Below, piece after piece: positions 10,984 through 55,750 of a stretch of 64,000 nucleotides of DNA. A program made the position numbers and the translations under genes. The notes beneath the pieces were generated by a model. That model was not told the DNA's origin. It made no database searches and saw only the letters and a list, made by a program, of their open reading frames with translations. Position 1 is the first letter of the stretch, and each line of letters begins with the position of its first letter. Source of the stretch: Nitrosotalea sp. (GTDB lineage: Bacteria > Methylomirabilota > Methylomirabilia > Rokubacteriales > CSP1-6). The stretch is taken from NCBI GenBank assembly GCA_035519555.1, contig DATIWG010000050.1, positions 20,040 through 84,039 of the forward strand. The letters run 5' to 3'.

Positions 10984-10999
10984 TGCATCGGAGGTGCCA
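10984..10999 (-). promoter_or_regulatory. Candidate sigma54 promoter (TGGCAC-N5-ATGCA)
   Basis: Read on the minus strand as TGGCACctccgATGCA, with correct GG-N10-GC spacing; the predicted TSS lies about 45 nt upstream of the Hsp20 ATG. Confidence 0.45.
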
Positions 11000-11131
11000 A
11001 GCAAACACCTCAGTGATTCAGCTGGTTGCCTCCCGGTGCAAGCCGGCCGCCCGAGGCGTTTGCGCCCCGGTGTGGCCCCGGCGCCCCAGCGGCGGACAGA
11101 GCCCGGGCCGATGTGGCGTGGCTTTACCTCG

Positions 11132-11147
11132 CGGCACCTGCCTTGCA
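11132..11147 (+). promoter_or_regulatory. Candidate sigma54 promoter (cGGCAC-N5-TTGCA)
   Basis: cGGCACctgccTTGCA lies about 40 nt upstream of the CBS gene ATG at 11189. Confidence 0.45.
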
Positions 11148-11188
11148 CTTGCATCGCTCGTTCGAACGTCTCTCCAGAGGAGGCCACC

Positions 11189-11611
11189 ATGCTCGGGAAG
11201 ATCTGCACCAAGCCGGTCGTCACCGCCTCGACCCAGATGACGGTCGACGAGGCGGCACGCGCGATGCGATCCAGGAACGTGGGCGCGCTCGTCGTGGTCA
11301 ATGCCGGACGGCCCGTCGGCATGCTGACCGACCGCGACATCGCCGTCGAGGTCGTGGCCCGGGGAATGGACCCGGACTCGACCCGCGTCGGTGACGTGAT
11401 GCGCAAGAAGCCCATGACCATCCGGGAGGACCTGGGCATCTTCGATGCCGCCAAGGCCTTCGCCAGGACCGGCGTCCGCCGGCTTCCCGTCGTCAGCAAG
11501 AGCGGGGTGCTGGTGGGCGTCATCGCGGTGGACGATCTGATCGTGCTGCTGGGCAACGAGCTCGGCCATCTAGCCGGCGCCCTGTCGGCCGGGCTGAGGC
11601 GGGCTTCGTAG
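11189..11611 (+). CDS. CBS domain pair protein
   Basis: 140 aa with two CBS motifs; AGGAGG Shine-Dalgarno 5 nt upstream of the ATG. Confidence 0.85.
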   Translation: MLGKICTKPVVTASTQMTVDEAARAMRSRNVGALVVVNAGRPVGMLTDRDIAVEVVARGMDPDSTRVGDVMRKKPMTIREDLGIFDAAKAFARTGVRRLPVVSKSGVLVGVIAVDDLIVLLGNELGHLAGALSAGLRRAS

Positions 11612-11629
11612 CGCTCGGGCCACAGCGGC

Positions 11630-52000: not shown

Positions 52001-52976
52001 GCGCGACCAGCATCTCCCTCACCGCTGTCGCGATGGCCGACACCTGGGGTAGCGCCGCGTCCTCCATGTGCTTGGCGTACGGCATCGGGACCTCGGCGCT
52101 GCACACGCGAGCGACCGGGGCGTCCAGGCTGTAGAAGCCGCCCTCCATGATCCGGGCGCTCACCTCGGCCGCGAAGCTGCCGGTGCGCCATCCCTCGTCC
52201 ACGATCACCGCCCGGTGGGTCCTGGCCACCGAGGCGAGAATGGTCTCGGTATCGAGGGGCCGCAGGGTGCGCAGGTCGATTACCTCGGCCTCGACGCCCT
52301 CCCGGGCGAGCTCGTCGGCGGCCCGGAGCGTCGTGCCGAGGGTCCCGCCGTAGGTGATCAGGCTCACCGCATCCCCGGAACGTCGGACCAGGGCCCGGCC
52401 GATCGCGGCGGGTCCGGCCTGCTCGTCGACCTCCCCTTCCAGCGGATAGAGCGTCGCGTGCTCGAAGATGAACACCGGATCCGGGTCACGCAGCGCGGCC
52501 AGCACGAAGCCCCGCGCGTCGGCGGCGACGGCGGGAACCACGATCTTGATCCCCGGGATGTGCGCGAACCAGCCTTCGAGGCTGTGGGAGTGCTGGGCCG
52601 CGAGCTGTCGGCCACCGCCGGTGGTCATGCGCACCACCAGCGGCACGCTGAGCTGGCCGCCGGACATGTGGCGGAGGGTCGCCGCGTTGTTGACGATCTG
52701 GTCCAGGGCCAGCAGGCTGAAGTTGACCGTCATGATCTCCACGATCGGACGCATCCCGCCGAGCGCGGCGCCGATGCCGGCACCCAGGAAGGTGTTCTCG
52801 GACAAGGGCGTGTCCCGCACGCGCTCGGGGCCGAACTCCTCGAGCAGCCCGTAGCTGACCTTGAAGGCGCCGCCGTAGCCCCCCACGTCTTCTCCCATCA
52901 GGAACACGCGCGGATCCGTCCGCAGCGCTTCCCGCAGCGCCGAGCGGATCGCGTCCCGGTAAGTCATCTTGGTCAT
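51993..52976 (-). CDS. 2-oxoacid (pyruvate/acetoin-type) dehydrogenase E1 beta subunit
   Basis: 327 aa with transketolase-like Pyr and C-terminal domains; start overlaps the E1-alpha stop (ATGA). Confidence 0.9.
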
Positions 52977-53938
52977 GGGGTCGCCGTGTACACGTCTCGG
53001 GTCAAGTCCTGCACCGCCTCCCAGGGTCCGGCCTCGGCCACGCCCACCGCCTCGTCGACCTCTCCGTCGACGGACGCCTGCAGCGAAGCCACGTCGGCGT
53101 CGGTCAGGATGCCCATCGCCTGCAGTCGCGCCGTGAACAGCACGATCGGATCGCGCTGCTTCCACTCCGCGACCTCCTCCCTCTTCCGGTAGAGCTCGGG
53201 ATCGGCGGTGGAGTGGGCCCGGAACCGATAGGTCCGCAGCTCCAGCAGGAAGGGGCCGTCGCCGCGCCGCACGTGCGCGGCGGCCTGCCGGGCGGCTTCT
53301 TCCACCGCCACGACGTCCATCCCGTCGGCGACGGCCGACGGCATCCCGTAGCCATCCGCCTTGCGGCGGATATCGGGCTGGGCCTGGTGGCGCGCGAGCG
53401 CGGTGCCCATCGCGTAGAGGTTGTTCTCGCAGAGGAAGAGGACCGGCAACTTCCACAGCGCGGCCAGGTTCAGCGACTCGTGGAACTCCCCCTCCGCCAC
53501 CGCCCCGTCGCCGAAGAAGCACGCGGTCACCCTGGGCCGGGCCTGCAGCTTGTCGGCCAGGGCCAGGCCCACCGCGACGGGCAGGCCGCCGCCGACGATG
53601 GCGTGGCCGCCGTAGAACCGGCGCGAGGCGTCGAAGAAGTGCATGGAGCCGCCGCGGCCCCGGCTGCACCCGTTGGCCTTGCCGTACATCTCGGCCATGA
53701 GCGAGCCGGCCGGGATCCCGCGCGCCAGGGCCTGGCCGTGCTCGCGGTAGGTCGCCACGATGGCGTCCTCCGCCGTGAGGGCCTGCATGGCCCCGACCGC
53801 CACCGCTTCCTCGCCGATGTAGAGGTGGAGGAAGCCGCGGATCTTGCCGAGCGTGTAGAGCTCGGCGGCCTTTTCCTCGAATCGCCGTATGAGCATCATC
53901 TGGCGGAGCAGGACGAGCGCGTGAGCCCGGTCGATCAT
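52973..53938 (-). CDS. 2-oxoacid dehydrogenase E1 alpha subunit (TPP-binding)
   Basis: TPP motif ([31 protein letters not shown]); start overlaps the acs stop (ATGA). Confidence 0.9.
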
Positions 53939-55710
53939 CGCTCCGCGTCCCCGCCCTCGAGCGTGGAGGTGTCGCCCTCGGGCAGCCCGAGCTCGCGCGC
54001 CTTGAGCAGGCGCCGCATGATCTTCCCGCTCCGCGTCTTGGGCAGGCTGGCCTGGAACGCGATCTCCTTCGGGGCGACCACGGCCCCGAGCCGGGTGCGC
54101 GCGAAGGCGAGCAGATCGCGGCGCAGCGCCTCGTTCGGCTCGTAGCCGTCCTTGAGCGAGACGAAGGCCTTGACGACCTCCATGGCGACCGGGTCGGGCT
54201 TGCCGATCACGCCGGCCTCGGCCACCGCCGGGTGCTCCATCAAGACGCTCTCCACCTCGAAGGGACCGATGAGGTGGCCGGAGCTCTTGATGACGTCGTC
54301 GGCCCGCCCCACGAACCAGAAGTAGCCGTCACGATCCCGTCGGGCGAGATCACCGGTGAGGTAGAAGCCGCCCACGAAGCACTTCCGGTAGCGCGCGGGC
54401 TCGTGCCAGTAGGCGCGGAACATGGAGGGCCACCCGGGGCGGAGCGCCAGCTCGCCCTGCACGTCGGGCGCCTCGATGACCTCGACGGCGTCCTCCCCCA
54501 CCCGGCGGACGATGGCGGCCTCCACGCCCGGCAGCGGACGTCCCATGGAGCCCGGCCGGATGTCCATGGCCGCATAGTTGGCGATCATGATCCCGCCAGC
54601 CTCGGTCTGCCACCAGTTGTCGTGGAAGGGCCGGCCGAACGCCTCGCGTCCCCAGACGACCGCCTCCGGGTTGAGCGGCTCGCCGACGCTGGCCAGGAAG
54701 CGGAGCGCGTGGAGATCGTACTTGTGCGCGAGATCGGCCCCGCTCTTCATCATCATGCGAATCGCGGTGGGCGCAGTGTACCAGACGGTCACGCGCTGCT
54801 CCTGCAGGATGCCGTACCAGCGCGCGGCGTCGAACTCGGCCTCGTCGACGATGCTCGTGATCCCGCAGGTCAGCGGCGCGATGATGCCATAGGATGTGCC
54901 GGTCACCCAGCCCGGATCCGCGGTGCACCAGAAGACGTCCCCGGGATGGAAGTCGAGCGCGAGCCGACCGGTGATGTGATGGGCCACGACGGCTTCGTGG
55001 ACGTGCACCGCGCCCTTCGGCTTGCCGGTGGTGCCGCTCGTGAAGTGCAGCAGGGCCAGGTCCTCGGGGTCGGTGGGCTCGATCGTGAAGCTCGCCTCGG
55101 CGCGCTCCATGAGGTCGCGATAGTCGCGGGTCCCGGGCACGCTGGTGGGCCGGTGATCGTCGCCGACCAGGAGCACGTGCTCCAGGTCGGGCAGCGATGA
55201 CCGGAGCGCGGCGACCTTGCGCCGGTAGAGCGACTCGGTGGTGACGAGCACGCGCGCCTGGCCGCTCGTCATCCGGACGCGGATCGGCTCGGGACCGAAG
55301 GCCGAGAACATCGGGCAGAACACGCTGCGATTCTTCAGCGTGCCGAGCGCGGCCACGTAGAGCTCGGGAATGCGGCCGGCGAGCACATACACGCGCTCGC
55401 CGGGTTCCACCCCCAGTGAGCGCAGGACGTTGGCGAAGCGGTCGGTGAGCTCGGCCAGCCGGCGGTAGGTGAAGTCGACGACCTCGCCCTTCTTGCCGAG
55501 CCAGCGCAGCGCCAGGTGCTCGCCGCGGCCGCGGGTCAGGTGGCGGTCGACCGCTTCGTGGGCGATGTTCAGCCCCCGGCCCCCGGGGAGCCCGTCGAGG
55601 GCGGCGCGCGCGCGCTCCCACGAAAACTCCTGGCAGGCGCGCGCGTAGTCACCGAGATTCGGCGCGCCGCGCGGATCTTCCGGGGACTTCCGGATCGGTT
55701 CCCAGCTCAC
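53935..55710 (-). CDS. Acetyl-CoA synthetase-like AMP-forming acyl-CoA ligase (AcsA type)
   Basis: AMP-binding motifs ([16 protein letters not shown]-like, SGK); start taken at the GTG preceded by GGAGGAGAGG. Confidence 0.85.
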
Positions 55711-55734
55711 CGATGGCCTCTCCTCCAGGTGGGG

Positions 55735-55750
55735 AGCAACCACGGTGCCA
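55735..55750 (-). promoter_or_regulatory. Candidate sigma54 promoter (TGGCAC-N5-TTGCT)
   Basis: Read on the minus strand as TGGCACcgtggTTGCT; the predicted TSS is just upstream of the Shine-Dalgarno and GTG of the acs-E1-E2-ACP operon. Confidence 0.45.

Follow-up and report, generated by a model that had tools for sequence, protein, structure and literature searches.

Sigma-54 type promoters and the predicted operons behind them

The window, a stretch of 64,000 nucleotides analysed at its full length, carries genes for Hsp20, Usp, CBS, HU, NadE and other proteins behind 14 sites of the sigma-54 (RpoN) type. Eleven of these, resembling TGGCAC-N5-TTGCA, had been listed in an earlier note; every sequence that it quoted is present on the strand it named, and the GG-N10-GC spacing is kept in each site. 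Eight of the eleven coordinates were exact, and three starts were off by one (21457 instead of 21456, 33167 instead of 33166, and 35242-35257 instead of 35241-35256). The list was real but incomplete, since it lacked the sites at 24068-24083 (minus strand), 24921-24936 (plus strand) and, more weakly, 59666-59681 (minus strand). The promoters are as follows, with predicted operon extents.

10984-10999, minus strand: promoter TGGCACCTCCGATGCA, 55 nt before Hsp20 (10488-10928); then, on the same strand, PCMT, Usp, ABC/MacB, PEP synthase-like, ABC-2 and cytochrome c genes, to about 2838
11132-11147, plus strand: promoter CGGCACCTGCCTTGCA, 41 nt before CBS (11189-11611); then ACP-FAAL-acyltransferase (11681-14482), DUF308 and a 177-aa protein
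21457-21472, minus strand: promoter TGGCACTTCCGTTGCA, a perfect match, 36 nt before three Usp genes; then PolX, LigA and CBS, to 15668
21608-21623, plus strand: weaker promoter CGGTACGCCGCTTGCA, 28 nt before CapA (21652-22773)
24068-24083, minus strand: promoter TGGCAGGCGGGTTGCA, 53 nt before CBS (23454-24014); then a 66-aa basic protein (23211-23411) and a 134-aa protein
24765-24780, minus strand: promoter TGGCCACCGAGTTGCA, before Usp (24217-24756)
24921-24936, plus strand: promoter AGGCACGGAGCTTGCT, 52 nt before an 87-aa lipoprotein; then MlaC (to 25881)
33167-33182, minus strand: promoter TGGCAGCACAGTTGCA, 18 nt before HU; then CBS, a P-loop protein, Hsp20, Lon, YkuD transpeptidase and M15 peptidase, to 25935
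35242-35257, minus strand: promoter TGGCACGGGCGATGCT, before a Tyr/Trp/Pro-rich secreted protein; then a Gly-zipper protein and an AIR-synthase-like protein, to 33301
43976-43991, minus strand: promoter GGGCACAAAGCTTGCG, 28 nt before a 58-aa protein and YdjM (to 43184)
44136-44151, plus strand: promoter TGGCAACCGGGTTGCA, 63 nt before NadE (44215-46302)
48605-48620, minus strand: promoter TGGCACCACGCTTGCG, 29 nt before CBS, an S2P-CBS protease and BON (to 46313)
55735-55750, minus strand: promoter TGGCACCGTGGTTGCT, 24 nt before acyl-CoA ligase; then E1 alpha, E1 beta, E2 and ACP, to 50556
59666-59681, minus strand: weaker promoter GGGTATGTCGCTTGCA, three mismatches with GG-N10-GC kept, 15 nt before tRNA_edit; then Cpn60/TCP1, CBS and an HhH protein, to 55873

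Pfam searches agreed with the gene labels given earlier (Hsp20, CBS, ACP-FAAL-acyltransferase, the three Usp genes, PolX, LigA, CapA, HU, NadE, S2P, BON and the acyl-CoA ligase-E1-E2-ACP operon), and the YWYYC motif ascribed to the small Tyr/Trp-rich protein is found in its sequence as VYWYYC. Translation of the Usp gene at 24217-24756 probably begins 38 nt downstream of its promoter, at position 24726, where an in-frame TTG comes with a Shine-Dalgarno sequence. That promoter has an orthologous site in one relative (L092), and the weaker promoter at 59666 has a near-identical counterpart, GGGTACGTCGCTTGCA, in another (L177).

To compare the density of sites with a shuffled control, as the earlier note had proposed, the pattern TGGCAC-N5-TTGCA was searched with up to two mismatches. 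The whole window holds 19 matches against 8.55 ± 2.63 in dinucleotide-preserving shuffles, none of which (0/100) reached 19. Intergenic DNA makes up 7% of the window, yet it contains 13 of the 19 (binomial P = 1.9e-11), and all 13 face a start codon 8-63 nt downstream; shuffles of intergenic DNA only (n = 1000) gave 0.76 ± 0.90 matches, with a maximum of 7. The six matches within genes are about the number expected by chance. Over all 92 kb of contig examined, promoters of this type number at least 21 and occupy about 80-84 kb. Among the 21 contig sites GG and TGC are invariant, and the other consensus positions are nearly so (C in 19, A in 18 and T in 18).

A palindromic dyad upstream of the promoters

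Palindromes were also sought upstream of the sites, another proposal of the earlier note, and a common dyad was found de novo that passed a family-wise shuffle test: GGGGC-N6-GCCCC occurred in 9 of 13 upstream regions, whereas the maximum among 300 shuffles was 6. The resulting 16-bp dyad, GRGGC-N6-GCCYC, precedes all but one of the 13 intergenic promoters at a distance of 48-103 nt; as far as we could find, it has not been described before as a binding site. The dyads form the following predicted UAS regions, with distances given from the dyad centre to the -24 T.

11053-11087: common to the 10984/11132 pair; tandem dyads GAGGCGTTTGCGCCCC (no mismatch) and GTGGCCCCGGCGCCCC (one)
21525-21559: common to the 21457/21608 pair; GGGACGAGGCCTCCCC (two mismatches) and GGGGCATCGGCGCCCC (none)
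24147-24182: UAS of the 24068 promoter; two one-mismatch dyads at 71.5 and 91.5 nt
24824-24859: common to the 24765/24921 pair; GAGGCACTCACGCCCC (no mismatch) and GGGGCGGACTCTCCCC (one), centres 20 bp apart
33248-33283: UAS of the 33167 promoter; tandem dyads (one and no mismatches) at 73.5 and 93.5 nt
44032-44092: common to the 43976/44136 pair; three dyads (one, one and no mismatches)
48682-48697: UAS of the 48605 promoter; GGGGCACCGGCTCCCC (one mismatch) at 69.5 nt
55845-55860: UAS of the 55735 promoter; one dyad (one mismatch) at 102.5 nt, with weaker dyads at 55.5 and 81.5 nt
59736-59771: candidate UAS of the 59666 promoter; two two-mismatch dyads at 62.5 and 82.5 nt

Among the 13 intergenic promoters that match the promoter pattern with up to two mismatches, 12 have a dyad at 35-115 nt upstream; no coding-region match has one in that interval. 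The upstream zones (855 nt) contain 14 of the 44 dyads with at most one mismatch in the window, where 0.41 would be expected, and five of the six perfect ones; because the pattern was refined on regions also used for this test, the P value of this enrichment is optimistic, and the cleaner support comes from the de novo shuffle test and from independent genomes. The 35242 promoter is the sole strong site that has no dyad with at most one mismatch upstream.

Each promoter or back-to-back pair has one to three dyads, usually in tandem about 20 bp apart from centre to centre, and four divergent promoter pairs in the window have one common central enhancer. Dyad-promoter distances show a periodicity of about 10.4 nt (R = 0.43), with a nominal p of about 0.002 for distances that are not independent. 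The half-sites vary (GAGGC, GGGGC, GGGAC), and three regions contain a sub-class, GGGAC-AGCGCC-KCCYC. The regulatory regions of the 43976/44136 and 24765/24921 pairs are paralogs of each other.

Alignments with relatives showed that dyads, -24/-12 elements and Shine-Dalgarno sequences are kept while the spacers have diverged. Dyad positions at the HPF promoter are kept across genomes at 72.5/91.5 nt, and the L177 ortholog of the 59666 UAS has one-mismatch dyads at 63.5 and 83.5 nt. In the L092 ortholog of the UAS at 24824-24859, the first dyad is kept and the second is broken by an alignment insertion.

An NtrC-type activator gene at the edge of the island

The earlier note had found no enhancer-binding protein encoded in the window, and Pfam searches, among others, bear this out. 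Its further statement that the activator must act in trans calls for qualification: a cognate-looking candidate is present on the same contig, 8.3 kb past the right end of the window and at the edge of the island. It encodes an NtrC-type response-regulator activator of 466 aa with GESGTGKE, ESELFGH and GAFTGA motifs and REC, AAA+ (bearing the GAFTGA) and HTH domains; it reaches the cut-off of none of the NCBIfam equivalogs, the best being AtoC (477 bits against a cut-off of 714). Directly after this gene come two dyads and a perfect promoter, TGGCACCTCCGTTGCA, before a Usp operon, and two related Methylomirabilota genomes share this arrangement. This adjacency and its conservation suggest a link between activator and dyads, and the gene is likely to encode the regulator of the promoters described here. 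Other enhancer-binding proteins are probably encoded in the genome. No histidine kinase was found near the activator gene. The 92 kb examined contain no rpoN gene, so we infer that the organism has sigma-54; among 1,414 surveyed genomes, every one with enhancer-binding proteins also had sigma-54 (PMC12316311).

A probable single enhancer-dependent regulon

We consider it probable that the sites are genuine -24/-12 promoters of one enhancer-dependent sigma-54 regulon in this Methylomirabilota (Rokubacteria) soil bacterium. The earlier proposal of a single stress or dormancy regulon gains support from the common dyad, the enhancer-typical distances and the positional conservation in relatives. 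According to this model, a kinase would phosphorylate the REC-AAA+(GAFTGA)-HTH activator, which would then bind the dyads, oligomerise and open closed sigma-54 holoenzyme complexes through DNA looping and ATP hydrolysis. At divergent promoters, whose -24 elements are 133-145 bp apart, one central enhancer would serve both. About 50 genes of the window, and further ones beyond it, would as a result be induced together in an all-or-none manner. The programme would comprise protein protection and repair (Hsp20, Lon, a group II-like chaperonin, PCMT), nucleotide-sensing modules (Usp, CBS), DNA repair (PolX, LigA, HU), ribosome hibernation (HPF), NAD synthesis, and envelope and lipid remodelling; as a whole, the gene set would suit survival or dormancy, and the signal may be dormancy, hypoxia or desiccation.

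Real sigma-54 promoters might instead belong to several regulons with different enhancer-binding proteins, the dyad being just one enhancer or the site of another activator. The varying half-sites, the three-region sub-class and the dyad-less 35242 site would fit such a division, as would conserved extra blocks (CCGGCCACTTG, CAAGT) in some regions, which could be bound by other factors. We nevertheless think it rather improbable, because a single dyad family recurs at matching distances at 12 of the 13 strong window promoters, the best-consensus promoter and its dyads adjoin the activator gene in three genomes, and the genes form one contiguous island of coherent functions. It is more doubtful still that the dyads have nothing to do with the activator, being operators of a repressor or nucleoid protein or mere GC-rich palindromes, with the activator bound elsewhere or acting from solution. 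Such palindromes form easily at 70% GC, and a related pattern, counted over the whole window, is about as common as chance predicts; however, the dyads passed the family-wise shuffle test, are confined to the zones 48-103 nt upstream of promoters, stand in tandem at two helical turns like classical NtrC-type sites, and keep their distance in genomes whose spacers have diverged.

Hardly credible is an origin of the matches by chance in GC-rich sequence or as ends of a repeated mobile element (a MITE-like inverted repeat), although the two sites of a pair are inverted copies separated by about 150 bp and the 24765/24921 and 43976/44136 regions align along their length. The shuffle controls exclude chance. 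An all-against-all BLAST of 15 regulatory regions returned short dyad blocks only and no common element, single unpaired sites occur, each site faces a start codon, and sites are kept at orthologous genes of other genomes.

Comparison with known systems

The mechanism of the proposed single regulon is the standard one for sigma-54 and enhancer-binding proteins; what is new is the lineage, the enhancer motif, the promoter density and a gene set that resembles the mycobacterial DosR dormancy regulon at the level of domain families. Classical sigma-54/NtrC-family regulons likewise have -24/-12 promoters with GG-N10-GC, a REC-AAA+(GAFTGA)-HTH activator, palindromic activator sites that stand in tandem some 80-130 nt ahead of the predicted start, and enhancers used bidirectionally. 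Divergent sigma-54 promoters with a common UAS occur at E. coli zraP-zraSR and hyc-hyp. In contrast to classical regulons, about 84 kb here hold 21 promoters, six of them as divergent pairs, which is an unusual density, and the host phylum is uncultured.

The hypoxia-responsive sigma-54 regulon of NmpR in Myxococcus xanthus, also a soil bacterium, is spread over the genome with its 7 promoters and 23 genes; it too combines an NtrC-like response regulator with promoters before CBS-domain, universal stress protein and P-type ATPase genes, each preceded by two tandem enhancer sites (PMC11841059). The promoters here are contiguous and number at least 21. The NmpR site GCGCA-N5-TGCGC has 9 matches here against 11.2 expected, none of them in any UAS zone, and the 92 kb examined contain no NmpS/T/U-type kinases.

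Families in common with the Mycobacterium tuberculosis DosR/DevR regulon include alpha-crystallin/Hsp20, many Usp, CBS, the S2P metalloprotease Rip3/Rv2625c, CapA-like Rv0574c and ribosome-associated Rv0079/HPF (PMC5309233, PMC3177182). The likeness is one of Pfam families, not of orthology, and in a PDB comparison the CBS and Usp proteins were not specifically close to M. tuberculosis proteins. Cation ATPase, eRF1-like, Rtc and Rv2004c-like kinase domains are presumably further families in common. No Dev box is present here; DosR belongs to the NarL/LuxR type and works at sigma-70-type promoters, whereas the present system would pair sigma-54 with an AAA+ activator. Tandem activator boxes are a hallmark of both.

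Sigma-54-type promoters in the window and its flanks

The whole window was searched for the pattern TGGCAC-N5-TTGCA, allowing up to two mismatches, with dinucleotide-preserving shuffles as the control. This returned 19 matches, against 8.55 ± 2.63 in the shuffles. A codon-usage model fitted to the window supplied the gene calls, which were then corrected by those on public copies of this contig; on this basis 7% of the window is intergenic. Within this fraction lie 13 of the 19 matches, and every one is directed toward a start codon that begins 8-63 nt further on (binomial P = 1.9e-11), whereas the intergenic DNA shuffled alone (n = 1000) gave 0.76 ± 0.90 matches with a maximum of 7. 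The six gene-internal matches are about as many as chance predicts. An earlier note, made from the sequence alone, had listed 11 such promoters and named a match density no higher than in shuffled DNA as grounds for rejection; window and intergenic counts both exceed the shuffles, and all 11 sites were recovered among the 19 matches, although the start was off by one in three of them. The list was real but incomplete, lacking two clear sites and a weaker one whose counterpart at the ortholog in a related genome is near-identical:

24068-24083 (-), clear site
24921-24936 (+), clear site
59666-59681 (-), weaker site before the tRNA_edit operon, GGGTATGTCGCTTGCA

The flanks were read from a 176-kb soil-metagenome contig (ena:ERZ27256499:k141_3352177), relative to which the window is reversed. 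The 92 kb examined reaches ~10 kb past the left end and ~20 kb past the right end, and several of its proteins have their closest named relatives in Methylomirabilota or "Candidatus Rokuibacteriota" genome bins. The flanks add seven sites, giving 21 in about 84 kb:

Left flank, divergent pair: YkoF-methyltransferase / ZnuABC
Left flank, divergent pair: HAD-hydrolase-cation ATPase / OmpA-glutamate dehydrogenase
157 nt past the right end, single site: before HPF (S30AE) and baeRF
Right flank, single site: before a Usp-Usp-APH-P-loop kinase-REC-CBS-TPR operon
Right flank, single site: before a small protein and an SNF transporter

Over the 11 specified bases, 20 of these sites carry at most two mismatches and one carries three. 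The GG and TGC are invariant, the remaining consensus positions are kept in 16-19 of the 21, and the GG-N10-GC spacing described in the earlier note holds in every one. Six sets are divergent pairs, with first bases 148-160 bp apart and -24 T's 133-145 bp apart. We are highly confident that the sites are real promoters of the sigma-54 class. At one of them, 24765, the longest ORF of the Usp gene opens with an ATG only 8 nt past the promoter, overlapping the predicted transcription start (window 24726-24756, -); to judge by the sequence, translation more likely starts at the in-frame TTG at 24726, with GGAGAGGG as Shine-Dalgarno.

A shared dyad upstream of the promoters

De novo enumeration covered every palindromic dyad of 5-mers with a gap of 0-8, in 13 independent upstream regions and in 300 dinucleotide shuffles. 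At up to one mismatch the top dyad, GGGGC-N6-GCCCC, was present in 9 of the 13 regions, while the best dyad of any shuffle reached 6. This search for enhancer-binding-protein palindromes, proposed earlier as a check, revealed a common element beyond the shuffle maximum. In the form GRGGC-N6-GCCYC (up to one mismatch) the dyad occurs 44 times in the window, with 14 copies inside the 855 nt of upstream zones (35-115 nt upstream of promoters) vs 0.41 expected. The same regions had served to refine the pattern, which makes the P value of this enrichment optimistic. Five of the six perfect dyads fall in these zones. Among the promoter matches with up to two mismatches, the zone holds a dyad at 12 of the 13 intergenic ones and at none of those in coding regions.

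Dyad centres precede the -24 T by 48-103 nt, which places them at roughly -75 to -130 relative to the predicted start. Tandem copies are usual, spaced 19-21 bp centre to centre, with centres at ~51, 61, 71, 81, 92 and 102 nt from the -24 T. The distances show a periodicity of ~10.4 nt (R = 0.43, nominal p about 0.002), which is only suggestive because they are not independent. In the divergent pairs, the arrangement of sites is such that one central dyad cluster would serve both promoters.

Two other accounts of these regions were considered and set aside. An initial candidate for the enhancer, GCCCCA-N2-TGGGGC, occurred at chance-level counts across the window; it has the half-sites in the opposite order to the enumerated dyad and corresponds to the junction of two tandem dyads. 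The regions are also not copies of a repeated mobile element, since all-against-all BLAST returned only short dyad blocks in common.

The sole perfect dyad outside the promoter-upstream zones, 62651-62666, lies in the 3' part of baeRF, ~250 nt upstream of a GYD-domain gene; no acceptable -24/-12 site was found downstream of it. Additional blocks, CCGGCCACTTG / CAAGT and GCCGAGGC, are common to 24781-24920, 43992-44135 and positions 11401-11498 of L178, the locus that carries the activator-adjacent Usp operon. About 30 nt separate the CCGGCCACTTG / CAAGT block from the -24 element downstream of it; this block could be bound by a DNA-bending protein or supply the activator with a third half-site.

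A candidate activator next to the window

The earlier note was right that the window encodes no enhancer-binding protein: neither GAFTGA nor a sigma-54 interaction domain was detected there by motif search and Pfam. A candidate was found through homologs of an APH-like kinase in two related genomes, both of which encode a 469-aa REC-Sigma54_activat-HTH_8 protein immediately upstream of the Usp operon. The ortholog in this organism is encoded on the window's own contig, 8.3 kb to the right of the window:

Record 88406-89806, window-equivalent 72285-73685: P0161, candidate NtrC-type activator, 466 aa

P0161 carries the Pfam domains REC, Sigma54_activat and HTH_8 and the motifs GESGTGKE (Walker A), ESELFGH and GAFTGA. 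Its best PDB matches are NtrC-family regulators (E = 1e-93), and it scores below the cut-off of every named NCBIfam equivalog. Immediately 3' of its stop codon stand two dyads followed by a perfect TGGCACCTCCGTTGCA. When the activator-Usp spacer was aligned for three genomes, the dyads, -24/-12 elements and Shine-Dalgarno were kept and the remainder had diverged; CAAGT is also invariant in this alignment. The activator itself is 81-99% identical over >120 sequence clusters, far more conserved than neighbouring genes. It marks the edge of the island, the contiguous promoter-rich gene block, because the genes beyond it look unrelated to stress.

No promoter of the sigma-54 class was found upstream of the activator gene, and the Pfam listings of the 92 kb include no histidine-kinase domains. 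Three products of the Usp operon beside the activator (L178 13598-15111, ~68.6-70.1 kb window-equivalent) may provide feedback on the activator's phosphorylation state: an APH-like kinase, a stand-alone receiver domain and a protein with a double P-loop (APS-kinase / AAA_33). The gene for sigma-54, rpoN, was not found in the 92 kb of contig, and an RpoN-box search of the collected loci was negative. Across 1,414 surveyed genomes, enhancer-binding proteins are reported only together with sigma-54 (PMC12316311); from this co-occurrence and the activator we infer that rpoN is present in the genome, a conclusion that is supported, not proven.

The single regulon suggested in the earlier note gains support from the one dyad family upstream of 12 of the 13 intergenic promoters. 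We think it probable that the sites belong to a single enhancer-dependent regulon, for which a new dyad has been defined and which has a strong candidate activator close by.

Conservation in related genomes

In an alignment of the 24765/24921 pair, its ortholog in the related-genome locus L092 (NadE 83% identical) and its paralog, the 43976/44136 region, the conserved blocks are both promoters, the dyads and the extra motifs CCGGCCACTTG and GCCGAGGC. In L177, the HPF and tRNA_edit promoters have dyads at distances matching those observed here. Promoters of the sigma-54 class are likewise present in L009, L010, L092, L093 and L095, with an upstream dyad in all except L010, in which a divergent promoter pair precedes the orthologous FAAL operon. 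In distant loci (2.3 Mb), the dyad lies upstream of 14 of 301 consensus matches, vs 5 of 301 in a downstream control, and most of the 14 come from close relatives.

A promoter was also expected at nadE of relatives; about 70 metagenome loci (60-76% identity) have no site within 300 nt upstream. In L092 and L095, the closest relatives, nadE is downstream of a promoter-bearing CBS gene. The regulatory context of nadE (44215-46302) is labile, with its own sigma-54 promoter here vs a CBS-led operon in L092 and L095.

Genes behind the promoters

With operon extents inferred from gene order alone, ~52 of roughly 67 window genes form same-strand runs behind one of 14 promoters. The gene set includes:

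Protein quality: two Hsp20, Lon, a Cpn60/TCP1-type chaperonin, PCMT
Usp and CBS: six Usp and eight CBS proteins
DNA: PolX, LigA, HU
NAD: NadE
Protease: S2P protease with a BON protein
Envelope and lipid: CapA, MlaC, an ACP-FAAL-acyltransferase fusion
Acyl set: acyl-CoA ligase-E1-E2-ACP
Just outside the window: HPF, baeRF, cation ATPases, further Usp genes

Rfam and tRNA scans of the window found nothing. Behind the 24068 promoter, the CBS gene is followed by a gene for a very basic 66-aa protein (MMAKAKAIRARSAKAGRPPE...TKPKIKKG; 23211-23411, -), which has no Pfam match and recurs in L092 (6477-6698) between a CBS gene and nadE. A Cpn60/TCP1-family chaperonin (57489-59114, -) and an archaeal-type S-adenosylmethionine synthetase (PF01941; 59782-60975, -) stand side by side in this bacterial genome, a pairing kept in L177; the Cpn60/TCP1 Pfam family is that of group II chaperonins and thermosomes. 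RtcA, an RNA 3'-phosphate cyclase (61047-62102, +), has neither RtcB nor RtcR nearby, and the 71-nt divergent spacer beside it (60976-61046) holds no -24/-12 site. The E. coli rtc operon is itself sigma-54/RtcR dependent.

Likeness to known regulons

The nearest mechanistic precedent for the island is the NmpR regulon of M. xanthus (PMC11841059), a hypoxia-responsive, sigma-54-dependent set with CBS, Usp and P-type ATPase genes among its members. However, the NmpR site GCGCA-N5-TGCGC, tandem copies of which precede the sigma-54 sites of that regulon, occurs (up to one mismatch) 9 times in the window vs 11.2 expected and is absent from the upstream zones, and the 92 kb has no histidine-kinase domains to correspond to the NmpU/S/T sensor kinases (haem protoglobin kinase) of that system.

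In gene content, the DosR regulon of M. tuberculosis, which lists HspX, Usp proteins, Rip3/Rv2625c, Rv0574c and RafH/Rv0079 (PMC5309233), has a like repertoire here at the level of Pfam families: Hsp20, multiple Usp, CBS, S2P protease, CapA-like protein and a ribosome hibernation factor. The likeness is a functional resemblance, not orthology. DosR is a NarL/LuxR-type regulator, whereas the island has no GerE-type regulator; the Dev box (GGGACT-WW-AGTCCC type) gave one gene-internal match with three mismatches, vs 1.8 expected, and none in the upstream regions. The CBS and Usp proteins were compared with the Hrp1 and Usp structures of M. tuberculosis, and no specific similarity was found.

The broadest reading is that one highly conserved response regulator drives a contiguous ~82 kb Rokubacteria survival island of at least 21 sigma-54 promoters and ~70 genes, many with bidirectional enhancers. 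We give even chances to this reading, which would make the island a functional counterpart, wired through sigma-54, of the DosR dormancy regulon of actinobacteria and place it among the densest single-activator sigma-54 regulons known. If it is true, promoter and dyad would offer a sequence handle for reading directly from metatranscriptomes when this abundant, uncultured soil phylum enters dormancy. A dormancy-type set that is sigma-70/DosR-run in actinobacteria can, on these terms, be placed under an all-or-none sigma-54 mechanism.

Gene inventories are the sole source of knowledge on the physiology of Rokubacteria and other Methylomirabilota, which are widespread in soil and uncultured, and a literature search found no paper linking Rokubacteria with sigma-54. 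The locus provides a testable regulatory model, with a promoter class, an enhancer motif and a named candidate activator, for a large block of genes for protein repair, DNA repair, ribosome hibernation and the envelope. The composite signature of -24/-12 site and dyad is usable for annotating the regulon in other metagenome-assembled genomes and for interpreting soil metatranscriptomes. New here are the uncultured host phylum, the promoter density and bidirectional layout, and the dormancy-like gene set; since the mechanism is textbook, the value is that of a clean new example, not a new principle.

The window is also rich in lipid and envelope genes (PAP2, LPG_synthase_TM, MMPL, MlaC, FAAL), among them a PAP2-family phosphatase gene (41487-42158, -) divergent from the LPG_synthase_TM gene. 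Full-length relatives of the 933-aa ACP-FAAL-lysophospholipid acyltransferase fusion (11681-14482, +; loci L009-L088), 41-60% identical to it, occur in at least 595 stretches, which span many phyla, Acidobacteriota, Nitrospirota, Gamma- and Betaproteobacteria and Entotheonella among them. The fusion is a widespread, little-discussed lipid-modifying enzyme.
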